Positions 25,218 through 25,996 of a DNA stretch of 64,000 nt are shown in pieces. The notes beneath the pieces were generated by a model. The model saw only the letters and a program-made list of their open reading frames with translations. It made no database searches and was not told the DNA's origin. The DNA is from Escherichia coli (lineage in GTDB: Bacteria > Pseudomonadota > Gammaproteobacteria > Enterobacterales > Enterobacteriaceae). The position numbers and the translations under genes were made by a program. The stretch is taken from NCBI RefSeq assembly GCF_003334765.1, contig NZ_QOWT01000001.1; one strand, 5' to 3'. How positions within the stretch are numbered: position 1 is the stretch's first letter; every line of letters starts with the position of its first letter.

Positions 25218-25719
25218 AACCTGTTCCTTATTCTGTGAACTTCAGGTGACATTAAAGCTTTACTCCTAATGGAGAAACGACGCAATCCCAACTCAGTCAA
25301 ACAGGTAAATATTAGTCTGATTATTAGTAAATACAATTAATCAATCACTCCCGGTGATCATATGATTTCAACTGTAATTATAAGAAAATAATGTACTGAT
25401 TCCCCGTATTAAACAAGTGGTTAATATATGCAAAACATTTTATTAACATTAAGTTGATTGTTGCCTTTCTTTGTATCTAATTAGTTTGTTGTGCGGTAAG
25501 TGTCTGTTTAAAAATAGCTTATCTGGTATTGCATGAAAGTGATTATTTATAGCAGATGATTATTTACGGTGAGTTATTTTAACTGTGCGCAACATCCCAT
25601 TTCGATTATTCCTGTTTCATTTTTGCTTGCTAGCGTAGCGAAAAACTTTTTAACAGATTGAAATACACCCAAAACAAAAGTATGGCTTATACATTTATGT
25701 TAAGTAATTGAGTGTTTTG

Positions 25720-25735
25720 TGTGATCTGCATCACA
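25720..25735. promoter_or_regulatory. CRP site of the flhDC class 1 promoter
   Basis: TGTGATCTGCATCACA, a perfect TGTGA-N6-TCACA, ~270 nt upstream of flhD; consistent with the known long 5'UTR. Confidence 0.6.
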
Positions 25736-25996
25736 CATTATTGAAAATCGCAGCCCTCCTCCGTAGTATGTGCGTGTAGTGACGAGTACAGTTGCGTCGA
25801 TTTAGGAAAAATCTTAGATAAGTGTAAAGACCCCCTTCTATTTGTAAGGACTTATTAAACCAAAAAGGTGGCTCTGCTTATTGCAGCTTATCGCAACTAT
25901 TCTAATGCTAATTATTTTTTGCCGGGTCTTCCCGGCGACATCACGGGGTGCGGTGAAACCGCATAAAAATAAAGTTGGTTATTCTGGGTGGGAATA

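Follow-up and report, generated by a model that had tools for sequence, protein, structure and literature searches.

Genes and features of the uspC-flhD locus

The window, by which we mean the whole 64,000-nucleotide (64-kb) stretch of DNA analysed here, is part of the Escherichia coli chromosome, and its open reading frames and annotation place otsBA, uspC, flhD, flhC, motAB and che genes in it. As in the wild-type arrangement, uspC and flhD are adjacent and divergent, and they are separated by a colinear spacer of about 780 bp that carries no insertion sequence (IS) (Table 1). The positions of both genes agree with those annotated in RefSeq for strain 1428. Over 25118-26096 this strain is 100% identical to the window, and the same identity was found in a total of 11 complete genomes, assembled independently. 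The genome of strain H3 shows 4 differences from the window in 49,000 aligned bases, and all its flagellar and chemotaxis genes, from fliC to flhE, are annotated as intact.

The G+C content drops to 27-33% over 25200-25700, against about 45-50% in the flanking genes. This low value in the upstream 500 bp is expected for DNA that is bound by repressors and prone to IS insertion. A scan of 24000-27500 against Rfam at E<=1 returned no family, so that nothing in the spacer can be attributed to a catalogued RNA element. Across E. coli alleles, its distal half (25295-25650) varied far more than did the core promoter and the leader; here the alleles fall into a few haplotype families, which suggests old alleles that have been recombining.

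Table 1. Features of the flhDC control region, in window coordinates. Positions with a sign are relative to the putative flhD transcription start at 25799.
Feature	Position	Strand	Description
uspC (universal stress protein C)	24789..25217	minus	142-aa ORF, divergent from flhD; RefSeq annotation of an identical genome agrees
uspC-flhD spacer	25218..25996		779 bp, uninterrupted, AT-rich
Derived substitution	25477		C (T>C); -322
CTAATTAG	25477..25484		Reported IS5 position in a Keio mutant; empty in the window
IS1 site of strain HCM-28C-2	25629..25638		Empty in the window
Derived substitution	25685		G; -114
IS1H site of the K-12 MG1655 reference	25692..25699		Empty in the window
cAMP-CRP site TGTGATCTGCATCACA	25720..25735		Both half-sites at consensus; predicted binding
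IS481-family site of strain IAL7255	25729..25741		1089-bp element in IAL7255; empty in the window
Candidate extra sigma-70 promoter	25741..25769	+	TTGAAA-17 bp-TAGTAT; consensus scan, 9/12 matches
Derived substitution	25757		T (C>T); -42; in the C-run between CRP site and -35
Putative -35 hexamer TAGTAT	25764..25769	+	Placed by 17-bp spacing to the -10; TTGTAT in other alleles sampled
Derived substitution	25765		A (T>A); -34; in the putative -35 hexamer
Putative -10 hexamer TACAGT	25787..25792	+	-12 to -7
flhDC 5' untranslated leader	25799..25996	+	198 nt
Antisense RNA AsflhD	25799..26018	minus	Begins 22 nt within flhD and extends back over the leader; transferred MG1655 annotation
RcsAB-box-like motif TAGGAAAAATCTTA	25803-25816		In the leader
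GGA motifs, candidate CsrA sites	25805-25807, 25848-25850		In the leader
Leader hairpin GCCGGG-TCTT-CCCGGC	25921..25938	+	Ancestral ACCGGG-GCTT-CCCGGC
Derived substitution	25921		G (A>G); +123; hairpin stem
Derived substitution	25927		T (G>T); +129; hairpin loop
flhD	25997..26347	+	ATG at 25997; protein identical to K-12 FlhD
flhC	26350..26928	+	Protein identical to K-12 FlhC

The spacer is free of insertion sequences

A preliminary description of this DNA held that the region between uspC and flhD, given as about 780 bp, contains neither a transposase ORF nor IS-like terminal repeats, and proposed to check this by alignment with IS1 and IS5 and with the flhDC upstream regions of other E. coli strains. 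Both statements held. The spacer has no ORF longer than 40 aa, and it is colinear, with no indel, with the IS-free K-12 allele of NEB 5-alpha; alignments with six other alleles revealed indels of 1-3 bp only. Searched with blastn against IS1H and IS5A from MG1655, the IS1 of HCM-28C-2 and the IS481-family insert of IAL7255, the spacer returned only chance words of 9-11 nt, and none of these four elements had a match at E<=1e-3 anywhere in the window. The terminal repeats of seven elements (IS1, IS2, IS3, IS5, IS30, IS150 and IS186) were not found in the spacer within 30% mismatches. The longest inverted repeats in 24700-26400 were of 21 nt (71% complementarity) or, among perfect ones, of 12 nt, and bracket nothing. 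The direct and inverted repeats of this interval were considered as possible IS scars and rejected, being short, imperfect and not placed like target duplications.

The description also named the region as a hotspot for IS1 and IS5 insertions that raise motility in laboratory strains, in agreement with the literature: K-12 stocks with an IS1 or IS5 inserted upstream of flhDC express their flagellar genes more strongly and are more motile, at some cost (PMC11237407, PMC8652233). Such IS-activated alleles, namely IS1H in MG1655 and IS5 in Keio and other K-12 strains, share the locus and its flanks with the window, and their insertion points fall within its spacer; they differ in carrying a 768-bp IS1 or a 1195-bp IS5 upstream of the promoter, with a target duplication and raised motility, whereas the window carries no such element. 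The IS5 of the Keio mutant lies 516 bp before the flhD ATG, which we computed from PMC11237407 to be 25481 in window coordinates. This position and the three other known insertion points (25629-25638, 25692-25699 and 25729-25741) are all empty in the window.

The genome of IAL7255, which otherwise carries the window's allele, has an IS481-family element that sits inside the right CRP half-site and separates the CRP site from the promoter. The element (L011 1401-2489) encodes a 348-aa transposase that scores 221.6 bits, where the cut-off of NF033577 is 224 bits, and 13 bp of flank are repeated at both sides. It represents a natural IS insertion, located much nearer to the promoter than the K-12 cases.

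K-12 stocks are known to gain and lose IS elements at this locus (PMC11237407), and one could therefore imagine that an element was once present in the window and was later excised, or that it was collapsed in the assembly, so that the region only looks ancestral. We regard this as highly improbable: relative to the IS-free K-12 allele the window shows no indel, whatever the size, no duplicated target site of 4-13 bp was found in the window allele at the known insertion points, and the sequence is identical in the 11 independently assembled genomes.

The IS-free state is the norm in E. coli

Of the complete E. coli genomes searched (5426), 5273 have a single place that covers 80% or more of 25118-26096. 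Contiguity was assessed with two probes of 301 bp each, too short for the search to bridge an IS1: 25300-25600 was contiguous in 5372 of the 5426 genomes, and 25480-25780 in 5248. The hot zone is thus interrupted in only about 3-4% of genomes, many of which are K-12 laboratory derivatives. An IS-free flhDC region is the norm for the species, in at least about 95% of complete genomes, and as such this state is uninformative.

CRP site and flhD promoter

The perfect CRP site that had been reported at 25720-25735 lies exactly there, and each of its half-sites matches the consensus. In the whole window, the pattern TGTGA-N6-TCACA has two occurrences, where shuffled sequence would give 0.03. The other occurrence, TGTGATTTGTATCACA, is a second perfect CRP-type palindrome at 16913-16928, between yecR and azuC according to the alignment with H3, and lies upstream of the small-protein gene azuC. 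The 33-mer 25720-25752, which includes the perfect flhD site, was found exactly in 4468 of 5388 genomes, and is therefore the majority allele. K-12 has a G at 25735, giving TCACG instead of TCACA, and is the sole such allele in an alignment of eight. At this site it is K-12 that deviates, most E. coli having the perfect sequence.

The flhD transcription start is probably at 25799 of the window, a position transferred by colinearity from K-12, the strain in which it was mapped, to the window's lineage; it coincides with the AsflhD 3' end, annotated at 1978395 in MG1655. The CRP site, centred at 25727.5, would then lie at -71.5, a class I activating position, consistent with the description of cAMP-CAP binding 72 nt upstream of the flhD start given in a preprint (bioRxiv 10.1101/2021.05.11.443715); for K-12, the literature cited there has shown that this binding raises transcription. 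Class I CRP-dependent promoters have their sites near positions such as -61.5 and -71.5 (lac P1 being an example), and the window likewise has a consensus site on the activating face of the helix; on this basis activation is predicted. Its putative -35 hexamer, however, is poorer than that of other E. coli alleles. Nothing specific on a published -35 assignment for the flhD promoter was found in the literature searched, and both hexamers in Table 1 are placed from the transferred start. Among the eight alleles compared, that of STLEFF_47 has an A at 25789, within the putative -10 hexamer.

Six derived substitutions

The window has six states that are absent from seven other diverse alleles, one of them 7% diverged over 25118-26096 (Table 1). 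Polarity was assigned by parsimony with these seven E. coli alleles and no outgroup from another species; being private to the window, the six states are derived. The sequence had been described as intact and ancestral. This is borne out for the architecture, which is colinear and without scar, but not for every individual base, since six have changed and one of these lies in the putative -35 hexamer. A gapped pattern spanning the CRP site to the start and a 22-mer from the leader gave no matches in scans of genome contigs, although the former matches the window itself.

The comparison with IS-free K-12 (for example NEB 5-alpha, BW25113 and poorly motile MG1655 stocks) gives a similar picture. 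The genes, the 779-bp length, the start region, the -10, the leader and the AsflhD region are as in the window, and the FlhD and FlhC proteins are identical. The two spacers differ at 22 bases, with no indel, and K-12 departs from the window in its TCACG at the CRP site, its TTGTAT -35, its C at -42 and a weaker leader hairpin.

IS5 has a target-site preference for the CTAA/TTAG context found in CTAATTAG. It is the derived T>C at 25477 that makes CTAATTAG a CTAA/TTAG sequence.

A rare promoter allele at -34 and -42

The T>A change at 25765 turns the putative -35 from TTGTAT into TAGTAT, with the loss of one base of the TTG. The exact 45-mer 25741-25785, which holds both promoter changes, is present in 88 of 5388 genomes, including ML35, TW11681, H3, 1428 and D5. 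Two more genomes, 2017.18.02CC and NCTC9112, have the A at 25765 without the T at 25757. The first is a member of the window's allele family. NCTC9112 shares no further private state with the window, from which it diverges by 1.15% over 24 kb; on either side of 25765, the first differences come after 8 bp (upstream) and 156 bp (downstream). The A in NCTC9112 may therefore reflect either an independent T>A mutation or a very short recombination patch. We also observed that otsA is annotated as frameshifted in this strain (L017 9617-11042). Conversely, strain PCP06171 has the T at 25757 alone, its background being K-12-like. With some 5400 genomes compared, one recurrence apiece is no demonstration of selection. 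We found nothing specific on natural polymorphism of the flhDC promoter in the literature searched.

The T>A at 25765 also creates a candidate sigma-70 promoter, TTGAAA (25741-25746) and TAGTAT (25764-25769) at 17-bp spacing, which agrees with the consensus at 9 of 12 positions. Without the derived A this candidate would not exist. Another scan candidate, TCGAAA-18-TAAAAT on the minus strand (25605-25576, directed toward uspC), was set aside as occurring at chance frequency.

These observations raise the possibility that the IS-free promoter was rewired by point mutation: the T>A at -34 would weaken the CRP-dependent promoter and create the overlapping one, so that the expression level or the catabolite control of flhDC would differ. 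Transcription from the candidate promoter would start near 25776, about 23 nt further upstream, and the CRP site would then lie at about -48.5, a non-activating distance. In its favour, the candidate has the A at position 2 and the T at position 6 of its second hexamer, and the other alleles sampled have TTGTAT, without the essential A; the derived A is carried by few genomes (88 plus 2 of 5388); it is found on a second background, that of NCTC9112, be it by independent origin or by a short patch; and the C>T at -42 also recurs. Nevertheless, we consider this reading unlikely. The candidate is a match to a consensus and equally frequent in shuffled sequence, as the scan of the 1-kb region found 2 sites against 3.0 expected from shuffles; the single recurrence in about 5400 genomes is no evidence of selection; and, the flagellar genes being intact, neutral polymorphism is equally consistent with the data. 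Rewiring would concern function only, and it is compatible with a native architecture of the region. Were the -34 change to shift the start site or the dependence on CRP, it would constitute a natural, IS-independent route to tune the master switch of motility.

The 5' leader and its hairpin

CsrA and the small RNAs McaS, OxyS, ArcZ and OmrA/B act on the flhDC leader according to the literature. Within the leader, two GGA motifs are candidate CsrA sites, and a further motif resembles an RcsAB box (Table 1). An A/U-rich stretch of the leader is predicted to pair with the ribosome-binding region, and this pairing is kept in both the derived and the ancestral folds. On the opposite strand, AsflhD is annotated in MG1655 at 1978176..1978395, which by colinearity runs from 26018 back to 25799 in the window. 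AsflhD is described as covering nearly the entire flhD 5' UTR (bioRxiv 10.1101/2021.05.11.443715).

Two of the six derived substitutions are located in a leader hairpin, which they are predicted to strengthen. Through the A>G at 25921 (+123), the stem gains a G-C pair that closes it and reaches 6 bp. The predicted fold of the 26-nt segment 25915-25940 is -14.6 kcal/mol, versus -9.3 kcal/mol for the ancestral sequence, and that of the entire leader is -57.2 versus -54.5 kcal/mol.

Control of flhDC in the window

We conclude that the interval 25218-25996 is almost certainly the native, uninterrupted control region of flhDC, the class 1 flagellar operon. A weak sigma-70 promoter would drive transcription from 25799, some 198 nt before flhD, and cAMP-CRP, bound at 25720-25735 with its centre at -71.5 (class I), would activate this promoter. 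The AT-rich 500 bp further upstream would act as the platform for repressors; IS1 and IS5 insert in this stretch in laboratory stocks that are motile. The spacer of the window has received no such element, so the operon would be under full native control. The long leader would then receive post-transcriptional control by CsrA, by several small RNAs and by the antisense AsflhD.

What the window carries is a minority sequence allele of the common wild-type arrangement. For annotation, the strain can be described as having native, repressible flhDC control, rather than the IS-activated type of the MG1655 reference, and wild-type motility, dependent on growth conditions, would be expected from it, not hypermotility.

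A more elaborate form of the promoter-rewiring proposal gathers the changes of this allele into a single scenario. The lineage that carries it (about 1.7% of complete genomes, with ML35, H3, 1428 and TW11681) would have an altered, IS-free flhDC control through the T>A at -34, with a degraded -35, an overlapping promoter, the CRP site at a non-activating distance, an extension of the CsrA-protected 5' end and a hairpin stabilised by two changes, and the A in NCTC9112 could reflect parallel selection. We judge this combination to be quite improbable.

Finally, elsewhere in the window, torZ (47169-49616) is broken up into one ORF at 47169-47984 and another at 47997-49616, and the annotation of H3, a near-identical strain, gives this gene as a pseudogene containing an internal stop.
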